Shown in pieces: positions 1,826-15,228 of a stretch of 64,000 bases of DNA. The stretch's first letter is position 1. Each line of letters begins with the position of its first letter. Under the pieces are notes generated by a model, which saw nothing but the letters and a program-made list of their open reading frames with translations, searched no databases and was not told the origin of the DNA. Source of the stretch: Candidatus Levyibacteriota bacterium (lineage in GTDB: Bacteria; Patescibacteriota; Microgenomatia; Levybacterales; UBA12049); NCBI GenBank assembly GCA_041906785.1, contig JAYRIM010000021.1, positions 17,881 to 81,880 of the forward strand, in the 5' to 3' direction. The position numbers were made by a program, and so were the translations under genes.

Positions 1826-2075
1826 GGGAAGCGGGTTGAAGCATTTATTGAAGTTGCATAGTTCAGGAGTAATCTGAACAGGTGCAACTTTTTTTTAAGA
1901 ACTTCAATTCGCTTCCCAGAATCCGGAGAGATCTCTGGTGAAGCACAAAGTCCTTCCTCGCGATTGAGCGAGGAAAGGTCCGGTATCGATCCGGTCTTAC
2001 TGCTAGTCAACCTTCCTGGAGAAGGGCCGTCAAGGCCGCCAGAAAGAGGCAGTATGGCTTCCTACGCTCCCTGAC
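1826..2075 (+). ncRNA. highly structured non-coding region (93-nt nested hairpin 1826-1918 GGGAAGCG..CGCTTCCC, followed by several 4-12 bp hairpins); candidate sRNA or structured 5' leader
   Basis: Multiple perfect/near-perfect stems seen; the only ORF here (1621..2010 minus) is low-complexity and implausible. Confidence 0.25.
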
Positions 2076-2161
2076 GTTTGGGAGAGGATCGAAATCGGTC
2101 TATCGAAACGTCTTTTTTCTTCATCGGGGGTACTGCCCCCACCCGCCCCAAGGAGGCACCC

Positions 2162-2971
2162 ATGTTCGCGCGACGCATAATGTTCGCCTTGCCGGTCATT
2201 CTGGCCGGCTTACTTGTTGCAGCCAGTATGGTTGCGACCGGAGCGCCGCCCGCCTCGGCGCAGGAACCGTCTACGGACGAACTCGTCCTCAGCTTGTCAG
2301 CCGACGAGGTTCTCGGCTACATGAGCCAGCCCGGGTGGGTTGGCGACGTCGAGGCTGTCAAGACCTCGCTTAGGCAGTCGAAGGCTGAGTCTACGGCCGT
2401 AAGCTGTTCGGAGCGTCCCAGTTTCTCTTACATCGCATTGGCTGTTGGCCCTGGTCCTGTCGTTGGAGGTCGCAAGTCCGTCATGACTGTGCGGACGTTC
2501 CGCAACCCGGATCCCAGCCTGGAGCACAGGTGGGGACCAGGTTTTGGTGGAGACTATTCGCTGACCACCAACTGCATGCAGGCGGACAATCTGGTTTCGG
2601 CTCGCTTCGTCACTGACGAAAACATGCGTGGGTCGTTCACGGCTACGTATGGGCTATATGTTCACACCACCAACCAAGCGGCGGTCGGACCGGTTACTGT
2701 TAACTACACGTATCCGTTCCAGCCTGCCGCGACGGCGACGAGCTTGCCCTACCCCGCGCCGTCACGCACGCCCGAGGCGTATCCCACCCCAACCGCCACG
2801 GTCACCCGTGGCTTCAGCGGTCAGGTGAGCACCCAGCACACCTGCCGGCAAGGTAACCCTGTACTTCGCGAAGGCATCGCGCATCCCGCGCCGTTACCCA
2901 CAGGCTTCCGGCTCTTGTGCGTCGGGCTTAACGACGCCTACCCGGTTTTCCAGCCGGTTCAGCCGCACTAA
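2162..2971 (+). CDS. GC-rich (about 62% GC) secreted protein of unknown function with Pro/Thr-rich C-terminal region; probable horizontally acquired gene
   Basis: AAGGAGG Shine-Dalgarno 7 nt upstream of ATG 2162; signal peptide MFARRIMFALPVILAGLLVAASMVATGAPPASA; strong GC3 codon bias in this frame; alternative-frame ORFs are Arg-rich as expected for off-frame GC-rich coding. Confidence 0.5.
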   Translation: MFARRIMFALPVILAGLLVAASMVATGAPPASAQEPSTDELVLSLSADEVLGYMSQPGWVGDVEAVKTSLRQSKAESTAVSCSERPSFSYIALAVGPGPVVGGRKSVMTVRTFRNPDPSLEHRWGPGFGGDYSLTTNCMQADNLVSARFVTDENMRGSFTATYGLYVHTTNQAAVGPVTVNYTYPFQPAATATSLPYPAPSRTPEAYPTPTATVTRGFSGQVSTQHTCRQGNPVLREGIAHPAPLPTGFRLLCVGLNDAYPVFQPVQPH

Positions 2972-3025
2972 CCGTGGTGGCATTCCCGGACTGTGATTGT
3001 CCAAAAACCGGGACCATGAGGTTCC

Positions 3026-3084
3026 CTGCCCCCGGCCGCGCAAAACGCGGCGAGACAAGCCCGCGCCAGGTGGCCGGGGGGCAG
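3026..3084 (+). terminator. long GC-rich hairpin (CTGCCCCCGGCC...GGCCGGGGGGCAG) without U-tract, downstream of GC-rich ORF
   Basis: 12-bp outer stem seen in sequence; resembles high-GC-organism intrinsic terminators lacking a T run. Confidence 0.35.
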
Positions 3085-3456
3085 GCCCTTGGGTCTGAGA
3101 AAGAAAGAAACACATGAAGGCGTTTCAAAAAACAAAAAGAACATGCTCCAAGCGACGGAAAACCCGTACTCTTGGAGGTGCCCAAATAAACTCATGCCAC
3201 TCTCTGATTCTGTATTCTTGAATTACCTATTATTGTCATGCTGAACTTGTTTCAGCATCTCAATTGTTAGTGGTGGGATCTTGAAACCTACCTATGTCAA
3301 GCAGGCGAGCTCCTTTGCAACGCTGAGTCCGCAAGTTCGGGATGACAAATATTCGAGGATAGAGAGTTGGAGATTGACTATTATATATTGTACTTATTTC
3401 TTGTTCAGTGATTGTAATCATTTTCTACTTAGTTTACTATATTTATATACTTAAAC

Positions 3457-4863
3457 ATGCCATTAAAACCTCTACAAGTAAATACGCTTCCTGATTCCCC
3501 TTCACTAAAAAAAATAATTGGTCCCAGTTTTATCATCTTAGCTTTAGGTTTAGGTAGCGGAGAAGTTATCCTTTGGCCGTACCTGAGTTCAAATTATGGG
3601 TTAGGTATTATTTGGGGAGCGCTTCTAGGGTTAACATTTCAGTTCTTTATGAACATGGAAATAGAGCGCTATGCACTCGCGCATGGAGAAAGTGTATTCG
3701 TAGGTTTAGCAAGAAAAATACGTTTGGTTTCTTTCTGGTTTCTTTTTTCTACATTTATCCCCTGGATGTGGCCAGGCATCATAGCGTCATCTGCTAAATT
3801 CTTCGGTACGGTATTCGGATTGACGGATACAAACATACTCACTATTTTTTTATTAATATTTATTGGTACCATTCTATCGCTTGGGCCTGTCCTGTATAAG
3901 ACTGTCGAACGATTACAAAAAACAATTATTTCAATCGGCGTCCCCTCAATATTTTTATTAAGTATTTTTCTGGCTAAACCTGAAGATTGGACTACATTAG
4001 CAAAAGGTTCAATCGGTATAGGTAAAGATTTTCTATTTTTACCTGAAGGCATCGCAATTGCCTCATTTCTGGGAGCCTTAGCATATGCAGGAGCAGGAGG
4101 GAATTTAAATCTCGCACAGTCTTTCTACATTAAGGAAAAAGGATATGGAATGGGAAAATATGCAGGTAGAATCACGAGTTTATTAACAGGTAAAAACGAA
4201 GATGTTTCTTTAACTGGTAGTAGATTTGAACCCACTGAAGACAATCTTAAAAAATTTAAAATGTGGTGGAAAAATATTAATATTGAACACTTTGTCGTTT
4301 TTTGGGTAACAGGATCAATAACCATTCTTTTACTAGCATTACTCGCATATGCAACTGTCTTTGGGGATCCTGGAAATACTCAAGGAGTCAGCTTCGTCAT
4401 TCGTGAAGCACAAACAATTGGCGAACGAACCCTACCATTTGTAGGAACATTTTTCCTTCTCGTAGTTGGGACAACACTTTTCGGCACACAACTTGGTGTC
4501 TTTGATGCGACAAGCCGTATATTATCTGAAAATCTTATATTAGCGTCCTTCCACAGATTGAGCGAAAAACATTTAAGGAAGCTTTATTATATAGTTTTAT
4601 GGGCACAAATAGCAGCTGGAATAACAATCATGTTATTAGGATTTACGGAACCACTTCAGCTAGTCATTACTGCGGCTGTATTAAATGCATTTGCCATGTT
4701 TGTGCACACCGGCTTAACACTCTGGTTAAATTTTACATCTTTGCAAAAACCGATTAGGCCTTCACTGTTTCGTGTAACTTTCATGGTTTTAGCATTTCTA
4801 TTTTACGGAGGTTTTAGTATCTACACATTCTACGATCGTTTCTTAGCTACTTTTTTGAAATAA
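3457..4863 (+). CDS. Nramp-related divalent cation transporter-like membrane protein
   Basis: 11-12 predicted TM segments; N-terminal GPSFIILALGLGSGEV and LLGLTFQFFMNMEIERYALAHG resemble the Nramp/MntH first two TM consensus (GPGFL..DPGN / LLLQRLAARLG) with DPGN replaced. Confidence 0.4.
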   Translation: MPLKPLQVNTLPDSPSLKKIIGPSFIILALGLGSGEVILWPYLSSNYGLGIIWGALLGLTFQFFMNMEIERYALAHGESVFVGLARKIRLVSFWFLFSTFIPWMWPGIIASSAKFFGTVFGLTDTNILTIFLLIFIGTILSLGPVLYKTVERLQKTIISIGVPSIFLLSIFLAKPEDWTTLAKGSIGIGKDFLFLPEGIAIASFLGALAYAGAGGNLNLAQSFYIKEKGYGMGKYAGRITSLLTGKNEDVSLTGSRFEPTEDNLKKFKMWWKNINIEHFVVFWVTGSITILLLALLAYATVFGDPGNTQGVSFVIREAQTIGERTLPFVGTFFLLVVGTTLFGTQLGVFDATSRILSENLILASFHRLSEKHLRKLYYIVLWAQIAAGITIMLLGFTEPLQLVITAAVLNAFAMFVHTGLTLWLNFTSLQKPIRPSLFRVTFMVLAFLFYGGFSIYTFYDRFLATFLK

Positions 4864-7922: not shown

Positions 7923-8694
7923 TTGTACACATCCGGTGTGTACTAGATAGACACCTCAGGAAATGATATTGTAGAGTTATGCCCTATCGTCAAATGCCTT
8001 TTGTTTCTGGAGAAATATATCATGTTTATAATAGGAGTATAGCTCGTCTACCAATTTTTAATAGAAAAAATGATTATATTCGTATACTCGACTTATTAAT
8101 GTACTATCGTTATTTAGAACTTCCTCTTAGATTTTCACATTTTAATAGATTATCTGAAGAAAGAAAAAGGCAGTACGAAGAGATTTATTTTACAAATAAA
8201 AAAAAATCGATTGATATACTTGCTTATGCTATTATGCCGAACCATCTTCATTTTCTTTTAAAGCCATATACTTTTAGTGCGATTTCAAATTTTATGCGAA
8301 ATATACAAAACGGATATGCTAAATATTACAATATAAAAAATGATAGAACAGGATCTCTTTTTCAATTCATGTTTAAGGCAAAAAGAATAGAAACAGAAGA
8401 ACAACTTATTCACGTTTCAAGATATATACATTTGAATCCCGTGACTGCATTCATTATAAATATTGATCAACTAGGTGACTATATGTGGAACTCATTTAAA
8501 GACTACCTTGAAGAATCTTCATCACTTGTGACTACTCAACAGATTCTAAATTTATTCTCTTCAAAGGAACAATATAAGAATTTTGTATATGATCAAGTTG
8601 ATTACCAACGAGAATTAGATAAGATAAAGCATTTGCTATATGAATAATCCTTATGTGTCTATGTTGTACAAACCCGATGTGGGTTTTAGTGGGT
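7923..8694 (+). mobile_element. IS200/RAYT-like unit: HUH-Y1 transposase gene flanked by inverted copies of a ~40-nt hairpin (REP-like) element
   Basis: 5' flank 7923-7957 TTGTACACATCCGGTGTGTACTAGATAGACACCTC is the reverse-complement orientation of 3' flank 8653-8694 ATGTGTCTATGTTGTACAAACCCGATGTGGGTTTTAGTGGGT. Confidence 0.55.
7979..8647 (+). CDS. IS200-like / REP-associated tyrosine transposase (HUH-Y1 family)
   Basis: Motifs EIYHVYNRSIARLPIF (YHVxxR), AYAIMPNHLHFLL (HUH), SRYIHLNPV (catalytic Tyr); 222 aa. Confidence 0.7.
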   Translation: MPYRQMPFVSGEIYHVYNRSIARLPIFNRKNDYIRILDLLMYYRYLELPLRFSHFNRLSEERKRQYEEIYFTNKKKSIDILAYAIMPNHLHFLLKPYTFSAISNFMRNIQNGYAKYYNIKNDRTGSLFQFMFKAKRIETEEQLIHVSRYIHLNPVTAFIINIDQLGDYMWNSFKDYLEESSSLVTTQQILNLFSSKEQYKNFVYDQVDYQRELDKIKHLLYE

Positions 8695-8702
8695 ATTATG
8701 AT

Positions 8703-9572
8703 TTAGAGCGAGGAAACGTGGTAATTGTCAAACTCAACATCCATAAAATCAGTTCGGATGCCGGCGTGGCCTTCGTCGAGAATCGCTGGTCCACCAAACT
8801 TCGTACCATCATCTACACCTTCAGCAGCGAGTTGCCAATTTCCAGAATTATCTTTATCAATATATACAGAAATGTGAACAGTATTATCACCATTAGTCCG
8901 TATTTGTGATCGCAAGCCTATCCATGTACCAGAAGGTATAAGATTTGAATGGGAAGAACTATCATATGAGCCGTCGAGGATTTTTTTACTTGCAATAGTA
9001 TAGTACGATCCATTCAATTTCTTTTTTATAACAGCTAATCCGTCTACACGGATCCCTGCATAGTAAAGCGTATCACCATTTCGGTATCTATTAAAAAAAA
9101 GAACGCCGTTTGATTGATTAAAGTTCTCACTTGAGCTGGGGTTATAAGCATTTACTTTAAAATTGATTTGTTGTTGGACATTTTTCCATGTGCCTTTCGT
9201 AACTAAGCGGAAAATATTTTGAGGTTGGAATCCTTCGTTTGTATCTTTAGGATTCGTCTGTTTATAAATCTTCTGCCATAATGATCCTTCTGGAAGTTTT
9301 CCTTGGATGGTTTTTCCAATACCATTCTCTACATAAAAAATCCCTCCTGAGTTTAGCCACCAAAAACTATTTGGGCTAATTAATAAATTTGGTGATTCTT
9401 GGAGTATCTCAGACGTATCAAAAGAGAAGGATGTTTGAGATACTTCATGTAGAACAGATTTCGTTGGCTGTATAAAACTAGTGGGAATAATTTTTTTAAT
9501 ATCCTGAGAAAAAGGAATAAAGAGAATAACAGCAAGCGAAATAAAAATGAAAGGAATCTTTGGCCACATCAT
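8703..9572 (-). CDS. secreted beta-sandwich (concanavalin/LamG-like?) protein, last gene of exopolysaccharide operon
   Basis: Signal-anchor N-terminus, beta-rich; co-directional and tightly spaced (17 nt) after the deacetylase gene. Confidence 0.4.
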   Translation of the reverse strand: MMWPKIPFIFISLAVILFIPFSQDIKKIIPTSFIQPTKSVLHEVSQTSFSFDTSEILQESPNLLISPNSFWWLNSGGIFYVENGIGKTIQGKLPEGSLWQKIYKQTNPKDTNEGFQPQNIFRLVTKGTWKNVQQQINFKVNAYNPSSSENFNQSNGVLFFNRYRNGDTLYYAGIRVDGLAVIKKKLNGSYYTIASKKILDGSYDSSSHSNLIPSGTWIGLRSQIRTNGDNTVHISVYIDKDNSGNWQLAAEGVDDGTKFGGPAILDEGHAGIRTDFMDVEFDNYHVSSL

Positions 9573-9588
9573 CGCTGCATTATAGCAA

Positions 9589-11172
9589 TTAATTTACATC
9601 AAAAGAAGCTTTTTTAATAATTATCTCGCTATTATTTTTATCAAAATCCCAGGTTTTCATAATGACTCCTCCGTGTGATAGAGAAGAGTTAACCTTATCT
9701 GTAGATATAGCTACTTTACCATTTATAGAACAATTCGCTGTCTGACCCTTAACTGACATACTTAACTGCAATTGTGCTGAGGGAATGATAAACTGTTTCC
9801 CTTGTTTTTTTATAGCTAACTGCTTCGTTTTCCCATTTACTTTTTGTTCAATTGTTACATAATCATTAATAAAATTACATTCTAAATAATTGTCTATATC
9901 TTGAAAACGAGAGGTAATTGTAAATGTTGACCCTTTTTTTATTTCGACATTTGTACTTATTTTATAATCTCCCCAAGCATATGTTCCGTCCAGGTATGTA
10001 GAACTACCATTTTCATTCTTTATGGGTTCCATAATAAGTTCGTTATTTTCTTTCTTTATGTTACCCCAAATAGAAACCCAGCCATTATTTTTCTTGAAGT
10101 CATCAGTATACGGAAGCGATTTTTGCCGACCTCTTTCCAACGTCTGTATGAGATCTTCTCCTGTCCAATCGTGCTTTACATCAATACGCTTTACGAGAAA
10201 TGCATGTTTATCAGGATAGTTATATGAATATGGAGTTTTTGCAGTCATCCAATACTGGTGAAAACCAAGGGAATACACCTTTTTACTTGCATCAAGAATA
10301 TATGTATCTGTATTATTATTAATCCCATAATCTCCAAAAGGATACGCAAAACCAATACTTTTAACATGAAAAGTTTTTTCAAGTTCAGTTTTCGCATCAT
10401 TCATATCTTTAAAAATGCGCTGTTTATATTCTTCTTCAGTTTCTAACCGATTTTTATCTGCAAGCCATAATCTACTACTATAGTAATGTCCCTCTCCATT
10501 TGGGTCAGGTGTCTGGTAGACATCATGTCCGTCTTTCGTATGAGCCTGAACATCCCATCTTCCCGTCTGTATCACTCTTCTTATTTCGTTAGCTGATAGG
10601 TAATAGGTAGAACCTTTTCCAGCCGAATATTTAAGAATAATAAACGTGACTCCTCGAAAATCTAAAGCATTAAAAATAGGATCAACAGGGTAGTAGCTTG
10701 CTTTCGAACCATCATCAAACGTAATAAGAATTGATTTGTCAGGAAGTGATCTTTTTTCTTGCATGAAATCATAAAAATCCTGCATGCTGACTGGTGTATA
10801 TCCATTTGCTTTTAAGGCAAACATTTGTTCTTTAAATGTACTCATAGGAATATTCTCTCCTGTATTTCGGTCTTGAATAGTATGATAAACAAGAACAGGA
10901 ATGGCTGTTGCTTTTGAAGTATTTTCCTTCTTCTTTTCTTCACCATATAAAGACCCGATAATATCAGTGAAGGATTTATGAGCGTATATTCCATATTCAA
11001 TTTTTATTTTCATCACATCTATCGAAGATGACACAGCGTGAAGCAAAGAAGAATTAATTGGAAGGTGTGTACTGCCATATAATAAACTACCTAATAGGAA
11101 TACTAATAATAAACTGAAAATAATCTGTAAAAAAGATGTATGTCTTCGTAACTTTTTTTCTTGTTTTTTCAT
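9589..11172 (-). CDS. polysaccharide deacetylase (NodB homology domain) with N-terminal TM anchor and C-terminal beta-rich domain
   Basis: TFDDGSKASYYPVDPIF (NodB motif 1 TFDDG), HTKDGHD His motif; 2-nt gap to upstream GT2. Confidence 0.7.
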   Translation of the reverse strand: MKKQEKKLRRHTSFLQIIFSLLLVFLLGSLLYGSTHLPINSSLLHAVSSSIDVMKIKIEYGIYAHKSFTDIIGSLYGEEKKKENTSKATAIPVLVYHTIQDRNTGENIPMSTFKEQMFALKANGYTPVSMQDFYDFMQEKRSLPDKSILITFDDGSKASYYPVDPIFNALDFRGVTFIILKYSAGKGSTYYLSANEIRRVIQTGRWDVQAHTKDGHDVYQTPDPNGEGHYYSSRLWLADKNRLETEEEYKQRIFKDMNDAKTELEKTFHVKSIGFAYPFGDYGINNNTDTYILDASKKVYSLGFHQYWMTAKTPYSYNYPDKHAFLVKRIDVKHDWTGEDLIQTLERGRQKSLPYTDDFKKNNGWVSIWGNIKKENNELIMEPIKNENGSSTYLDGTYAWGDYKISTNVEIKKGSTFTITSRFQDIDNYLECNFINDYVTIEQKVNGKTKQLAIKKQGKQFIIPSAQLQLSMSVKGQTANCSINGKVAISTDKVNSSLSHGGVIMKTWDFDKNNSEIIIKKASFDVN

Positions 11173-11173
11173 A

Positions 11174-12505
11174 TTATCTCGTACTCCATTTTCTATCTTG
11201 GATTCTTATAAGGGAGTAGTAAAGAATGAATGATAAGAAAAACATATTGATGGATGACCAGACAAAAATATACTTCCAATACTTGCTTTTACGGTCTACT
11301 GATAAGTAATAGAGAGTCACGATACATGCGATAAGAAAAATACCAAGAACATATGTAACTGGAAAAATGTGATTAATAAAAGGATTATAAATAAGAGCAA
11401 GCGTAGCCATAATCGGTGTCATAAGTGTTAATAAGAATAATGGTAGAAAATATGTTACTGCTACGAATGGCTGGTTTTTATAAATAAATTTCATTGCAAA
11501 AATAGAATTTATAAACCAACTTTTCTTCCAGCGAATTTGTTGTTTAAGAAACTGTTTAAATGTCTCAGGGACGATAGTATACGCTTGGACTTCATCTGCA
11601 TATACGGTAAGATAGTTACTTCGAAGAACCCAATTCGTTAAGGATCTATCATCTCCCCACATGACCGGTTTTCCGAGGAATGTTTCGTTTTGCCATTTAT
11701 TAATAATCGGTAAAATCACACTTTTTCTATATGCGGATGCGCAACCACTGCAGCAAAACACAGTTAAGAAGGTCGATTCAGCAGCTTTCAAAATACGAAA
11801 TGACATGAAATAGTAAGCTGCTTGCATTTTTGTTAACCAGTTTTTATCTGCGTTTACTGGGGAAGCATGAGCACAGACTGCGCCTATTTCACTATGTAAA
11901 AACGGCTGGATAATTTTTCTAATAGCATTTGGTTGTAAATAGCTGTCACTATCTAGCTGGATTACAATTTCCCCTTTCGTTAATCGAAAACCTTCAGCCA
12001 TGGCGTGTCGTTTCCCTCGGTTTTCTTCCCAATGAACTACTGTTAAACGGGAAAATTCTTTTTTCAGATTATCTAAAATTTCTTTAGTCTTATCTGTACT
12101 TCCATCGTTAATGACAATTACTTCGAATTTATCAGCTGGATATTCTGCTTGAAAACATTTTCGAATATTCTTTTCTATCGATTTCTCCTCATTTTTACAT
12201 GGAATAACAAATGAAACAGAGGGTGTAAAGTGTTCAATGTCTTCAGTTTCAAGATGGGATGTGATTTTTCTATAAGATTTTTTATACAGCATTGCACCTA
12301 GGATACGTGATAACTGGAAAACAGTGACGAAGACAGTGTAAGAGAAGATATAAGGATGTTGCCAAATCTCTACAACATCATCTGATTTCATATAAATAAT
12401 AGAGAGTAATACGATAAATCCAAGAAATGCTAAAAACATCTGGAAAAGTATTTCCTTCGCGGATGGAAAAGAGAAAAATTGTTTTGCTGAAATTAATGTT
12501 TTCAT
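11174..12505 (-). CDS. processive family-2 glycosyltransferase, HasA/NodC-like polysaccharide synthase
   Basis: DGSTD, DSDS (DxD), CCSGCASAYRKSV, GDDRSLTNW and QQIRWKKSW (QxxRW) motifs closely parallel class I hyaluronan synthase CSGPLSIYRREV / GDDRCLTNYA / QQNRWNKS; N- and C-terminal TM helices. Confidence 0.75.
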   Translation of the reverse strand: MKTLISAKQFFSFPSAKEILFQMFLAFLGFIVLLSIIYMKSDDVVEIWQHPYIFSYTVFVTVFQLSRILGAMLYKKSYRKITSHLETEDIEHFTPSVSFVIPCKNEEKSIEKNIRKCFQAEYPADKFEVIVINDGSTDKTKEILDNLKKEFSRLTVVHWEENRGKRHAMAEGFRLTKGEIVIQLDSDSYLQPNAIRKIIQPFLHSEIGAVCAHASPVNADKNWLTKMQAAYYFMSFRILKAAESTFLTVFCCSGCASAYRKSVILPIINKWQNETFLGKPVMWGDDRSLTNWVLRSNYLTVYADEVQAYTIVPETFKQFLKQQIRWKKSWFINSIFAMKFIYKNQPFVAVTYFLPLFLLTLMTPIMATLALIYNPFINHIFPVTYVLGIFLIACIVTLYYLSVDRKSKYWKYIFVWSSINMFFLSFILYYSLIRIQDRKWSTR

Positions 12506-12506
12506 A

Positions 12507-13841
12507 TTATCTGCCTATACCTTTATAAGTAATTCCTGCTTTTTGAAAATCTTCTTTCGGAAGACAGTTTCGTCCGTCAACGATAACTTTTATACCAAGT
12601 CTCTTAAGTTTTGCAGGAGTTAAGTTAACAAACTCGGTATGTGCAGTAGCTATAAGGATAGCTTTCGTATTCTTTAATGCTGCGGATAGTGTTTCTTCGG
12701 TAGATTTATTTATAAGATATGGATCAAAAATAGCCACATCTGCACCACGTTCTTTTAATAATTTAATAATTTCATATGATGGACTTTCTCGATCATCATC
12801 GATATTTGCTTTATATGACAATCCTAAAACTGCAATTCTTGTTCCATTTATGGCTAGTTTATGTTCATTAAGTCCTTGTTCGAGTTGCTCAATAGTAAAA
12901 TGAGGCATTTTATTATTAATTCTTCTCGCTAAAGAAAGAAATTCATGGTAAAAACCATTTTTCTTCGCATATTCAATCAGGTAATATGGATCGACAGGAA
13001 TACAGTGGCCTCCAACACCGGCTCCTGGAAAGTGCGGCATAAAAGAGAAAGGTTTCGTTGCAGCGCCTTCGATAACATGTACGACGTCAATGCCTAAATG
13101 AGAAAAGGACATGGCAAGTTCGTTCACAAATGCAATATTTATATCTCGAAATGCATTTTCTACCACTTTTACCGCTTCTGCTTCCTTTAAGGAATGCATT
13201 TGTTTTACTTCGCCTTTAATGATCGATTTGTAAAAAGCAGTGGCTTTTTTTAATGAAATTTGGTTAAATGCTCCGACGACACGATTAATGTTTTCAACAT
13301 TCCATTTTGTATCTCCCGGGTTAATACGTTCAGGGCAATGTGCGAGATAAAAGTCCTTTCCAGCGATTAGGCCAGATTTTTCTTCTAAGATTGGCAGTAC
13401 AACATCATCAGATACACCAGGATTTACAGTGGATTCGAGGATAACTAATTGTCCTTTTTGTAGATATTTTGCAATATTCTCGGTTGCGGAAATTACAGGT
13501 TCTAAATCAGGAGTATAATCAAGATGAACTGGTGTGGGAACACAAATAATAATCGTTGATGCATTTTTTAGATCAGAATAGTCAGTAGAAGCAATAAGAG
13601 AAGATTTTCTGAGTAATTTCGCTAGTGTTTCATCATAGAATGGGACAACTTTATTATTAATCTGGGCTGCTTTTTTCGGATTTCGTACGACCCCCACAAC
13701 CTCGTACCCTTTTCTATTAGCAAGAAGGGCAAGTGGTAATCCAACATATCCTAAACCTATAATAGCCATTTTCTTTGTATTAAGCGTTTGCGTTGATGCC
13801 ATAAAAAAACCAGTTTTAATAAAACTGGACAGTTTTGGCAT
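12507..13841 (-). CDS. nucleotide-sugar dehydrogenase, UDP-N-acetyl-hexosamine 6-dehydrogenase type (WbpA/TviB/WecC-like)
   Basis: N-terminal Rossmann KKMAIIGLGYVGLPLA; catalytic GGHCIPVDPYYL matches the UDP-GlcNAc/ManNAc dehydrogenase signature GGHCIxVDPYY rather than UgdH GGSCFPKD. Confidence 0.7.
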   Translation of the reverse strand: MPKLSSFIKTGFFMASTQTLNTKKMAIIGLGYVGLPLALLANRKGYEVVGVVRNPKKAAQINNKVVPFYDETLAKLLRKSSLIASTDYSDLKNASTIIICVPTPVHLDYTPDLEPVISATENIAKYLQKGQLVILESTVNPGVSDDVVLPILEEKSGLIAGKDFYLAHCPERINPGDTKWNVENINRVVGAFNQISLKKATAFYKSIIKGEVKQMHSLKEAEAVKVVENAFRDINIAFVNELAMSFSHLGIDVVHVIEGAATKPFSFMPHFPGAGVGGHCIPVDPYYLIEYAKKNGFYHEFLSLARRINNKMPHFTIEQLEQGLNEHKLAINGTRIAVLGLSYKANIDDDRESPSYEIIKLLKERGADVAIFDPYLINKSTEETLSAALKNTKAILIATAHTEFVNLTPAKLKRLGIKVIVDGRNCLPKEDFQKAGITYKGIGR

Positions 13842-13913
13842 TATACTATAGTTTTTCCTATAAGTCTAGTAGTAATAGGAAACCAGCCTTGGTGGATTAA
13901 TTATTTGGACGAT

Positions 13914-14183
13914 TTAAGTTTGGTCGAGAGGTGAATTTTCGAGGTCTGGGTCATTTACTGTGCTTGGCTTTTCAGGTTTTACCACATCGGATGCTGGAAT
14001 AGGGATAACTATTTCAGCCTGATTTGTAGGTTCGAAAACAGGCTCTCGGATAAACTGTAAATCCATGTTTCGTAAATCTGACTGAAGTATTCCACGGGAA
14101 GACCACCCAAGAATAAAAAATAAAGGGAGAATAAGAAGAATCATCCAGAAAGAGAGAGATTGTCTATCGTCAATTTGATACAT
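13914..14183 (-). CDS. small membrane protein, hypothetical
   Basis: 89-aa ORF with one TM segment upstream of EPS operon. Confidence 0.3.
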   Translation of the reverse strand: MYQIDDRQSLSFWMILLILPLFFILGWSSRGILQSDLRNMDLQFIREPVFEPTNQAEIVIPIPASDVVKPEKPSTVNDPDLENSPLDQT

Positions 14184-14296
14184 ATATTGATACCTGTAGT
14201 CTAACTTTAGAGACGAAAAGGTATAACAGATCTATTTATAATCTTCAGGCGTTAAGAATAAAAAAGAAGAGGGTAAGAAATAAGTTACAATTACTA

Positions 14297-14328
14297 GTTA
14301 TGAGTTATGAGTTATGAGTTATGAGTTA
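14297..14328. repeat. tandem heptamer repeat (GTTATGA) x4.5
   Basis: gttatgagttatgagttatgagttatgagtta read directly. Confidence 0.9.
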
Positions 14329-14730
14329 GGGGTGGGTAGAATCGTGCCGCAAGGGGAGGCATGGTATTTCAGCTCTAAGTGAGCTGGTCTTAGAGAGCTG
14401 GGCGCTCTCTTTAGACAACCATACCGCCCCTGCGGCTAAGAACCTTGTGAGTCACTACGTTGACCACCTTTCCCCGTAAGGGGAAAATACCTACAAGAGG
14501 TGGTAGTTCAGCGGAGCGCTGACAAGGGCTCCCTTACGGGAGCAAATTTTCAAATCTTGACCGTGGAACCGGTTATGTTTTCTCCCGAGGGAGAAGCCAA
14601 TTTCCGTTCCTAAAGAGGAACGAAAACATCCATCCCGAAAGATGGTGGCTGCCTCTTGCGAGGCAAAACCGGTTCGTCGTTCCCCAAACGATCAAGTATA
14701 GGGGGAGAATACCATGATCCTCCCGCCTGT
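14329..14730 (+). ncRNA. candidate large structured ncRNA (about 400 nt, GC-rich, no ORF) with long-range closing helix and numerous tetraloop hairpins; class not identified
   Basis: 5' GGGGAGGCATGGTAT (14351-14365) pairs with 3' ATACCATGATCCTCCC (14710-14725). Internal hairpins: CCCCgtaaGGGG, GGGCTCCCttacGGGAGC, CGTTCCTaaagAGGAACG, CATCccgaaaGATG, GCCTCttgcGAGGC. No ORF over 60 aa on either strand across 14184-15170. Confidence 0.35.
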
Positions 14731-14852
14731 ACCCGATCGTTTATTAATTTCAATGTAAAAGTTCACTAAAAGAAATCGCTTTCTTTCAAGAAGAATCCTT
14801 TTATATCATGTTTTGCATTCTTTGTCAAGACTATAGGGCCTATTTGGTTGTG

Positions 14853-14880
14853 GGTTATGAGTTGAGAGTTGTCTGTTATA
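14853..14880. repeat. degenerate heptamer-type repeat GGTTATGAGTTGAGAGTTGTCTGTTATA
   Basis: Same GTTATGA/GTTGTC word family as 14297, 24105, 25877. Confidence 0.6.
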
Positions 14881-14883
14881 AAC

Positions 14884-14958
14884 AAAGAGACAAAAGAGCC
14901 CAGAAGGAAGTAATTATCCTTTGGCTCCTCTGGCTCATTTGACTCATCTCTCTCTTTG
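14884..14958. repeat. composite palindromic intergenic repeat, copy 1 (degenerate)
   Basis: Words GAGACAAAAGAGCCCAGAAGG ... CCTTTGGCTCCTCTGGCTC shared with copies at 22352, 33161, 40699, 47231, 49151. Confidence 0.5.
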
Positions 14959-15228
14959 ATTATTGCTTATGGTGGTGATTGCTATACCTCTAAAATTGAA
15001 CTATAATTATTGATTGACTTAAGCTAAAAATTCATACGAATGAGTTGAAATTGTCCTATTTATACATACAAATTATTACGAACATACATTGACAATTACT
15101 TACTATGGAAACAATCCGCATAAAAGGTGCCCGAGAGCACCCCAGTATAACGTTTACCTTCTCCCGAGGTCTACGTCCTCGCGTCGAAGGAGCTCGTATA
15201 CGGGGCAAGCAACTTAAATATAATTAAT

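Follow-up and report, generated by a model that had tools for sequence, protein, structure and literature searches.

An operon type widespread in Patescibacteria most likely directs synthesis, export, and partial de-acetylation of an N-acetylglucosamine-based surface polymer

Introduction

Which polymer is produced by a four-gene polysaccharide operon of a Candidatus Levyibacteriota bacterium, and does the nucleotide-sugar dehydrogenase encoded by its first gene contribute to this product? The operon is located in a stretch of 64,000 nucleotides (nt; assembly GCA_041906785.1, contig JAYRIM010000021.1, positions 17,881 to 81,880), which is referred to as the window. It encodes a dehydrogenase (gene 1), a membrane-embedded synthase of glycosyltransferase family 2 (GT2; gene 2), a deacetylase of carbohydrate esterase family 4 (CE4; gene 3), and a β-sandwich protein of an unannotated family, here called P4 (gene 4). 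According to our analysis, this type of operon is widespread in the candidate phyla radiation (CPR, Patescibacteria) and most likely makes, exports, and partly de-acetylates a surface polymer based on N-acetylglucosamine (GlcNAc). The polymer is probably made acidic by the linked dehydrogenase.

Results

Four intact genes form a tightly packed operon

A reading of this DNA made from its letters alone (in the following, the sequence-only reading) had claimed four co-directional genes, and all four open reading frames (ORFs) are indeed present on the minus strand (Table 1). The operon is real, and its intact genes are closely spaced: the gaps between them measure 1, 1, and 16 nt instead of the 2-17 nt claimed. 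The gene 1/2 and gene 2/3 junctions consist of the identical string AGATAATATGAAAA (stop codon, one nucleotide, start codon). Since stop and start are only 1 nt apart at these first two junctions, the arrangement fits translational coupling. All motifs quoted by the sequence-only reading were found in the translations, namely GGHCIPVDPYY, CSGCASAYRKSV, GDDRSLTN, QQIRWKKS, and TFDDG. Each gene has hundreds to thousands of homologues (35-66% identity), and an independent read set holds an identical 9.3-kb contig. Therefore, the four ORFs are not chance ORFs.

Table 1. Positions of the four operon genes and of adjacent features in the window
Feature (predicted product)	Positions	Strand	Remarks
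Gene 1, UDP-N-acetylhexosamine-class nucleotide-sugar 6-dehydrogenase	12507..13841	-	444 aa from ATG at 13841
Gene 2, membrane-embedded processive GT2 synthase of hyaluronan synthase/NodC/chitin synthase type	11174..12505	-	443 aa
Gene 3, membrane-anchored CE4 de-N-acetylase of PgaB/IcaB type	9589..11172	-	527 aa; concanavalin-like β-sandwich at ~355-527
Gene 4, P4, exported or anchored concanavalin-like β-jelly-roll of an unannotated family	8703..9572	-	289 aa
RAYT gene, Y1_Tnp/REP-associated tyrosine transposase	7979..8647	+	convergent with the P4 gene
Promoter-like site TAGACT-17-TATAAT	13840..13868	-	consensus scan, 10/12 positions
Hairpin and T-run in putative 5' leader	13810..13828	-	terminator-like scan and sequence read

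The synthase resembles class I hyaluronan synthases and NodC

The synthase matched the Pfam families Glycos_transf_2 and Chitin_synth_2. The best NCBIfam model was NodC (TIGR04242), which aligned over the full length with 193.8 bits and missed its cut-off of 550; the PgaC/IcaA model (TIGR03937) reached 140.5 bits and missed its cut-off of 422. The best matches in the PDB were hyaluronan synthases (HAS; 8smm and 7sp6), and the alignment to XlHAS1 and CvHAS extends through the C-terminal membrane region. Sequence identity amounts to 36% with a Paenibacillus GT2, 30-34% with HasA of Bacillus anthracis pXO1, 26% with XlHAS1 and CvHAS, 25% with PgaC, and 23% with R. etli NodC. Hydropathy analysis indicated hydrophobic segments at residues 19-37, 354-372, and 380-398. 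Residues D134, D185xD187, GDDR, and QQxRW are invariant in the synthase family, and the catalytic residues of the deacetylase and dehydrogenase families are invariant as well. The residues forming the acceptor collar of XlHAS1 (Y288, F292, C307, D342, R343, W382) are conserved.

These features support the assignment of gene 2 as a membrane-embedded, processive GT2 synthase that is most similar to class I HAS and next most similar to NodC. This agrees with the HasA/NodC-like enzyme of the sequence-only reading; the best alignments are not to non-processive GT2 enzymes. The synthase family has at least 2490 members. Its best 120 matches are 56-66% identical, and the named members are mostly Patescibacteria. 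Many homologues are labelled 'hyaluronan synthase' by JGI.

Deacetylase and P4 share a β-sandwich fold

The gene 3 product is a CE4 enzyme with the D-D and Hx4H motifs and the N-terminal catalytic His of the PgaB/IcaB subtype. PgaB, BpsB, and IcaB were its best sequence matches, and its score on the PgaB equivalog model (89 bits) missed the cut-off of 322. The C-terminus forms a concanavalin-like β-sandwich resembling carbohydrate-binding module family 66 (CBM66), and no GH153 domain is present. The earlier label "NodB deacetylase" is thus right as to the CE4 family, with TFDDG present, and has to be changed as to the subtype. Both the deacetylase and P4 carry an N-terminal hydrophobic segment, which appears as a helix in structure models. 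Because of these segments, the deacetylase is expected to be extracytoplasmic and membrane-anchored and P4 to be exported or anchored. Gene 3 is therefore supported by its sequence features as coding for a membrane-anchored polysaccharide de-N-acetylase of the PgaB/IcaB type.

P4 adopts a concanavalin-like β-sandwich fold without belonging to any Pfam family and has at least 1578 homologues. Its fold and its hydrophobic segment are those of the secreted β-sandwich protein proposed by the sequence-only reading. P4 and the C-terminal domain of the deacetylase have a common fold and the same top structural matches, but BLASTP found no sequence similarity between them. A role of P4 as an enzyme of the GH16 or PL7 families, for which an ExDxxE motif and an invariant His are characteristic, was rejected: the invariant residues of P4 include neither, and only the fold is shared. 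Additional P4 paralogues and longer forms of 535-710 aa were seen in six related loci, and the β-sandwich of the deacetylase occurs as extra copies or in deacetylases of 780-930 aa in another six. The β-sandwich modules of the cassette therefore appear to be expandable.

The properties of both proteins also bear on the idea that the operon makes short chito-oligosaccharides, that is, Nod-factor-like signals, with the synthase acting as NodC and the CE4 enzyme as NodB. As in rhizobia, a CE4 gene lies next to a synthase for which NodC is the best NCBIfam model, with an end-to-end alignment. Nevertheless, we consider this explanation very improbable. The NodC score is far below the cut-off (194 vs. 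550 bits), and the identity with R. etli NodC is low. The deacetylase differs from the cytoplasmic NodB both in subtype and in its extracellular location, as judged from the membrane helix and the CBM-like domain. The operon contains no NodA-like acyltransferase gene, and the carbohydrate-binding-like modules of P4 and the deacetylase suit a surface polymer.

Synthase, deacetylase, and P4 form the conserved core

Related loci were collected by a scan of one genome per GTDB species, which gave at least 73 synthase loci with 10-kb flanks. They were retrieved via two conserved peptide patterns, and the sample is biased to close relatives. All counts rest on tblastn, since the rough ORF caller used breaks down on high-GC loci. 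Some taxon labels of metagenome-assembled genomes (MAGs) are doubtful, for example those tagged 'Gammaproteobacteria'. The 73 loci mostly belong to CPR lineages; the others derive from Anaerolineales, Actinomycetes/Gaiellaceae, one Bathyarchaeia contig (L045), and one Micrarchaeota contig.

The deacetylase gene is located directly downstream of the synthase gene in 63 of 66 loci, and P4 homologues occur in 43 of 53 loci, with two or more copies in 14. The identities of the synthases are correlated with those of the deacetylases (Mantel r = 0.38, 0/2000 permutations). A dehydrogenase gene was found directly upstream of the synthase in 21 of 59 species-level loci and within 10 kb in 23 of 59, and the dehydrogenase-positive loci are scattered over the synthase tree. 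The conserved unit therefore consists of synthase, deacetylase, and P4. By this comparison, the dehydrogenase is an accessory gene across the relatives, and a content of N-acetylhexosamine (HexNAc)-uronic acid can only be assumed for a subset of loci. The locus described by the sequence-only reading is thus conserved in its core but not as a set of four.

The Micrarchaeota contig (L009; Candidatus Micrarchaeota RBG_16_49_10, MFRS01000004.1) codes for a synthase with 55% identity, followed by a deacetylase. A PCNA gene lies 2.2 kb from the synthase, which shows the contig to be truly archaeal. Judged from these sequences, the cassette has moved between CPR bacteria and DPANN archaea. The same comparison places its core as conserved in CPR bacteria and indicates that it also reached Chloroflexi, Actinobacteria, and DPANN archaea.

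Additional deacetylases occur among the genes flanking the cassettes. Genes for histidine kinases and OmpR-type response regulators lie beside the cassette in about a tenth of the loci; among 125 flanking genes, 9 code for response regulators and 7 for kinases. None of them adjoins the operon of the window.

The dehydrogenase belongs to the UDP-N-acetylhexosamine class

The dehydrogenase carries all three UDPG_MGDP_dh domains (PF03721, PF00984, PF03720) and scored 418 bits on TIGR03026 (cut-off 189.8). The NCBIfam models of HexNAc dehydrogenases (archaeal UDP-ManNAc dehydrogenase, 321 bits; TviB, 259; WecC, 236) outscored those of UDP-glucose dehydrogenases (UGDH; 193, 167, and 62 bits). The same was observed for solved structures: 4r16, Cap5O, and 3g79 gave 267, 252, and 229 bits, whereas UGDH chains reached at most 133. 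Five relatives showed the same pattern of model scores. Across 19 homologues, neither the catalytic Cys280 within GGHCIPVDP nor the GxGxxG motif varies. Accordingly classed by homology, gene 1 codes for a UDP-N-acetylhexosamine dehydrogenase (WbpA/TviB/WecC/Cap5O class) and not for UgdH. The sequence-only reading had come to the same view, and UDP-glucose dehydrogenases are not the best-aligning relatives.

Its narrower label "UDP-GlcNAc 6-dehydrogenase-like" goes further than the homology, which does not pick between UDP-GlcNAc, UDP-ManNAc, and UDP-GalNAc: the scores stay below the cut-offs of the substrate-fixing equivalog models (TviB, 259/592; WecC, 236/459; archaeal ManNAc dehydrogenase, 321/750). 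An enzyme of the WecC/Cap5O type would be expected to have a linked UDP-GlcNAc 2-epimerase, and none is present at the locus. A ManNAcA pathway was sought via this epimerase, WecB, but the 64-kb window and all 73 synthase loci lack a homologue. In a metagenomic set, by contrast, dehydrogenases that are truly WecC-like (36-39% identical) adjoin WecB. This indirect evidence favours UDP-GlcNAc, which is most likely the substrate.

The annotated ATG of the dehydrogenase gene overlaps a TATAAT-like box, and its homologues align only from residues 17-25 onwards. The true start is therefore probably M14 (13802) or M25 (13769).

The class of the dehydrogenase also bears on a further alternative, namely that the product is true hyaluronan (GlcA-GlcNAc) and the dehydrogenase serves as a UDP-glucose dehydrogenase, HasB. 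HAS are the closest solved structures of the synthase, the identity with HasA of B. anthracis pXO1 is the one given above, the order of dehydrogenase and synthase resembles the has and cps3 operons, and the JGI label points in the same direction. We nevertheless regard hyaluronan as highly improbable. UGDH models and structures score far below HexNAc ones for the window dehydrogenase and for all homologues checked; in the has locus of pXO1, galU is accompanied by a UGDH gene whose product shares only 27% identity with the window dehydrogenase; and the universally linked deacetylase has no role in hyaluronan synthesis.

Recurrent pairing argues for a link between dehydrogenase and synthase

The combination of a HexNAc-type dehydrogenase with a synthase of this kind is not restricted to close relatives. 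Three divergent metagenomic cassettes encode such a dehydrogenase together with a deacetylase and a synthase that is only 37-41% identical to that of the window, and in two of them P4 also follows. A homologous cluster of a cultured bacterium is located on plasmid NZ_CP045296.1 of Paenibacillus cellulositrophicus KACC 16577 (261.8-269.5 kb). It consists of genes for a NodB-type deacetylase, a TviB-like dehydrogenase, a PilZ-synthase (38% identical), a PgaB-like deacetylase, and a GH18 protein. The dehydrogenase is missing from the PLSDB gene table but is encoded by an intact 414-aa ORF, which scored 429 bits on the TviB model. The N-terminal PilZ domain of the Paenibacillus synthase suggests control by cyclic di-GMP. 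GH18 enzymes use a substrate-assisted mechanism, and by analogy the GH18 gene hints at β-1,4 linkages after GlcNAc.

A high-GC viral contig from IMG/VR (L160) carries dehydrogenase, synthase, and deacetylase genes in the same order as the window. On a low-GC viral contig (L161) and in two giant-virus MAGs (L162, L164), the dehydrogenase adjoins the synthase, with both gene orders represented. The synthases of these four are HAS/chitin synthase (CHS)-like and 26-35% identical to the window synthase, and for all four dehydrogenases the HexNAc models give higher scores than the UGDH models. Together with the 21 loci mentioned above and the clusters published from fungi, chloroviruses, and phaeoviruses (see Discussion), these cases span lineages so divergent that the recurrence would be difficult to account for unless the two enzymes share a pathway. 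The pairing thus argues for a functional link between dehydrogenase and synthase.

The competing explanation is a neutral GlcNAc homopolymer, chitin-like or like poly-N-acetylglucosamine (PNAG), which the CE4 enzyme converts into a chitosan-like polycation; the dehydrogenase would then be a mere neighbour that feeds a different glycan. Several results speak for it and thus against a uronic acid in the polymer. In 36 of 59 loci with enough upstream DNA, no dehydrogenase is encoded within 10 kb of the synthase, and the flanking genes of such dehydrogenase-less cassettes include no other precursor enzyme. No synthase column tracks the presence of the dehydrogenase (Fisher test, best p 7e-4 among ~440 columns, non-significant after correction). 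The mirror-tree correlation of dehydrogenase and synthase is r = -0.01, which speaks against their being inherited together, in a test in which repeated recruitment and noise look alike. Only 2 of 21 metagenomic dehydrogenase homologues with at least 50% identity and enough downstream DNA precede a synthase; their commonest context is a cluster of dehydrogenase, soluble GT2, GT4, and a DUF6541 membrane protein. Because most homologues are found in such clusters, the dehydrogenase family is not dedicated to the cassette.

Three further points weaken the case for a uronic acid. Residues K177 and R341 of CvHAS contact the GlcA carboxylate (residue mapping of HAS, which also covered positions lining the electropositive channel: PMC12987647, PMC11750622). 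They correspond to K165 and R325 of the window synthase, where both are conserved. NodC and PgaC keep the same residues, which hence do not discriminate; the donor specificity is therefore not settled by sequence. The dehydrogenase is slightly nearer to UDP-ManNAc dehydrogenases than to TviB in its model scores, and the literature yielded no biochemically characterised member of this synthase, deacetylase, or P4 family. A homopolymer would also agree with the PNAG-deacetylase subtype of the gene 3 product and with the GH18 gene of the Paenibacillus cluster. Moreover, UDP-GlcNAc as the sole donor is sufficient for class I HAS to form chitin oligomers.

Despite these points we consider a homopolymer at the window locus rather unlikely. 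HexNAc-type dehydrogenases adjoin such synthases in many independent lineages and in both gene orders, and the two genes of the window are separated by a 1-nt stop-start junction. A search of the 64-kb window for another glycosyltransferase to which the dehydrogenase could supply its product gave none. In addition, a Moranbacteria contig carries two dehydrogenase-less cassettes (L040, L070) together with a dehydrogenase gene elsewhere (L094), which shows that a dehydrogenase-less locus is not equivalent to a dehydrogenase-less genome. On balance, we are therefore inclined to assume that the polymer of the window locus contains HexNAc-uronic acid.

The dehydrogenase-GT2-GT4-DUF6541 arrangement is a second recurrent glycan cluster with a dehydrogenase of the same family (at least 50% identity) and was noted in six metagenomic or CPR loci, including L094 of the Moranbacteria contig. 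It encodes a soluble GT2 of ~320 aa, a GT4 of ~365 aa, and a DUF6541/DUF1616-like membrane protein of ~640-660 aa. Such a cluster was also sought in the window, and none was found.

Other features of the window

The RAYT gene next to the operon had been placed 50 nt from its end by the sequence-only reading. It is indeed the convergent neighbour of gene 4, at a distance of 55 nt from the gene 4 stop. Of the 73 related loci, only 4 have a RAYT homologue no further than 10 kb away from the synthase, and we therefore treat this proximity as coincidental. An 89-aa ORF upstream of the operon (13914-14183) was considered as a fifth gene and rejected, since it has no homologue in the 73 synthase loci.

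The position of the promoter-like site upstream of gene 1 (Table 1) fits the shortened dehydrogenase start, although the region contains no more sites of this kind than shuffled sequences do. The hairpin between this box and position 13802 could be a leader or attenuator, or it could be due to chance.

The non-coding gap between the 89-aa ORF and uvrA (14184-15228) contains a stretch of ~450 nt (14340-14790) with unusually stable predicted folding. Compared to shuffled sequences, the minus strand gave z = -11.6 (minimum free energy -206 vs. -136 kcal/mol) and the plus strand z = -8.8. The predicted minus-strand fold contains many hairpins capped by GCAA, GUAA, UUCG, and UACG loops. No Rfam match was obtained even at E<=1, and no similar DNA was present in the other fetched loci. 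We regard this stretch as a candidate for an undescribed structured RNA, located upstream of the operon and on the same strand. An (ATAACTC)x5 repeat was noted at ~14296-14330.

At ~2000-3500, the window contains an island with a GC content of 0.53-0.61, compared to ~0.35 for the window. An ORF within this island (2078-2971) codes for 297 aa with a signal-peptide-like N-terminus and no Pfam family. The island gave no Rfam match and a modest folding z-score (-3.4). Insertion of foreign high-GC DNA or a chimeric assembly may account for it.

Discussion

Comparison with known systems

The locus combines features of several known polysaccharide systems. Like class I HAS, it encodes a single membrane GT2 enzyme expected to polymerise and translocate the chain, with DxD, GDDR, QxxRW, and the acceptor collar in common, and as in hasA-hasB-hasC a nucleotide-sugar 6-dehydrogenase is encoded in the same operon. 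It differs from them in the HexNAc class of this dehydrogenase and the lack of a hasB-type UGDH, which the pXO1 has locus possesses together with galU. Furthermore, a CE4 deacetylase and β-sandwich proteins are obligatory partners in cassettes of the window type. The synthase itself is only 26% (XlHAS1, CvHAS) to 32% (Bacillus HasA) identical to class I HAS. R287 of XlHAS1, which lies beside GlcA in the channel, is replaced by an invariant Tyr, and HAS K448 by Thr.

The PNAG systems (pgaABCD, icaADBC) likewise combine a GT2 synthase with a subsequent extracytoplasmic CE4 enzyme of the same subtype, and they bring about partial de-N-acetylation of a GlcNAc polymer. The window synthase, however, contains the GDDR motif of the NodC/HAS type (PgaC, 140 bits vs. 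NodC, 194), and the locus lacks a PgaD/IcaD-like gene, a PgaA porin, and GH153, the last being replaced by a CBM66-like β-sandwich. The Vi antigen system (tviB-E) employs a C4 epimerase, a GT4 polymerase, and an ABC exporter, and the window locus encodes no such proteins; only TviB is shared as a member of the same dehydrogenase class (259 bits). In the type 3 capsule locus of Streptococcus pneumoniae, cps3D-cps3S, a dehydrogenase gene is followed by the gene for a processive GT2 synthase that uses its product. This operon logic is the same as in the window, but Cps3D is a UDP-glucose dehydrogenase, in contrast to the HexNAc class of gene 1.

The closest counterpart in gene content comes from eukaryotes and their viruses. 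Fungi, chloroviruses, and phaeoviruses contain clusters of the UDP-GlcNAc 6-dehydrogenase gene UNGD and a chitin-synthase-like GT2 gene, the product of which is unknown, and in one clade a polysaccharide deacetylase joins the cluster (Chen et al. 2014, PMC4059230; Goncalves et al. 2016, PMC5122149). The same three genes, for a HexNAc-type dehydrogenase, a HAS/CHS-like GT2, and a CE4 enzyme, are adjacent in the window. These clusters differ in being eukaryotic or viral and in that P4 has not been reported from them; their relation to the window was gauged only by the viral-contig synthases described above (26-35% identity). In the searchable literature, the two studies were the only related ones, and the CPR cassette and the P4 family are undescribed.

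Because the equivalog cut-offs were missed and UGDH, NodA, and PgaD are lacking, the locus is none of HasA, NodC, or PgaC by membership; judged from its gene complement, it is not a hyaluronan, Nod factor, PNAG, or Vi locus. By analogy, it resembles a has/cps3-type operon of dehydrogenase and processive synthase fused to PNAG-type de-N-acetylation.

A proposed pathway

We have little doubt that the operon specifies a synthase-dependent system for a partly de-N-acetylated, GlcNAc-based surface polymer. In the first step, the dehydrogenase would, as expected from its family, oxidise a UDP-N-acetylhexosamine at C6, converting UDP-GlcNAc to UDP-GlcNAcA. The synthase would then use a single GT-A site on the cytoplasmic side to polymerise both UDP-GlcNAc and the uronic acid donor, and, like class I HAS, it would pass the chain through a transmembrane channel of its own. 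Outside the cell, the anchored PgaB/IcaB-type CE4 enzyme is predicted to strip some of the N-acetyl groups from the polymer held by its C-terminal β-sandwich, and P4, judged from its fold, may act on the polymer at the surface by binding or processing it.

The pathway predicts a partly de-N-acetylated, GlcNAc-based chain with HexNAc-uronic acid where a dehydrogenase is present; this chain would be acidic to zwitterionic and chitin/hyaluronan-like. A hybrid polymer, as foreseen by the sequence-only reading, is plausible from the gene content, although nothing Vi-like is found beyond the dehydrogenase class. As an overall explanation we cautiously prefer a synthase-dependent surface or exopolysaccharide operon, the product of which contains HexNAc-uronic acid in the dehydrogenase-bearing loci.

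A wider proposal is put forward only tentatively, as a possibility to which we give less than even credence. The polymer could be an undescribed acidic to zwitterionic glycosaminoglycan-like chain of alternating or mixed GlcNAc-uronic acid and GlcN/GlcNAc, extruded in a HAS-like manner and serving as a conserved surface coat of ultra-small episymbiotic CPR bacteria and DPANN archaea. P4 would then represent a new polymer-binding or -processing family, and identical chemistry would underlie the orphan clusters known from fungi and giant algal viruses.

Implications

CPR bacteria and DPANN archaea live attached to hosts, and their surface glycans are almost wholly unexplored. With synthases that are 50-66% identical across many candidate classes, the cassette is among the more conserved multi-gene units of these organisms. 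The enzyme types are familiar, while the polymer and the P4 family are, as far as the literature shows, new to characterisation. If the dehydrogenase feeds the synthase, the polymer would be of a type not yet described. This would also provide a bacterial handle on the product of the dehydrogenase, chitin-synthase-like, and deacetylase clusters of fungi and algal viruses, a question that has been open since 2014. With its homologous cluster, the cultured P. cellulositrophicus KACC 16577 makes this question directly testable.

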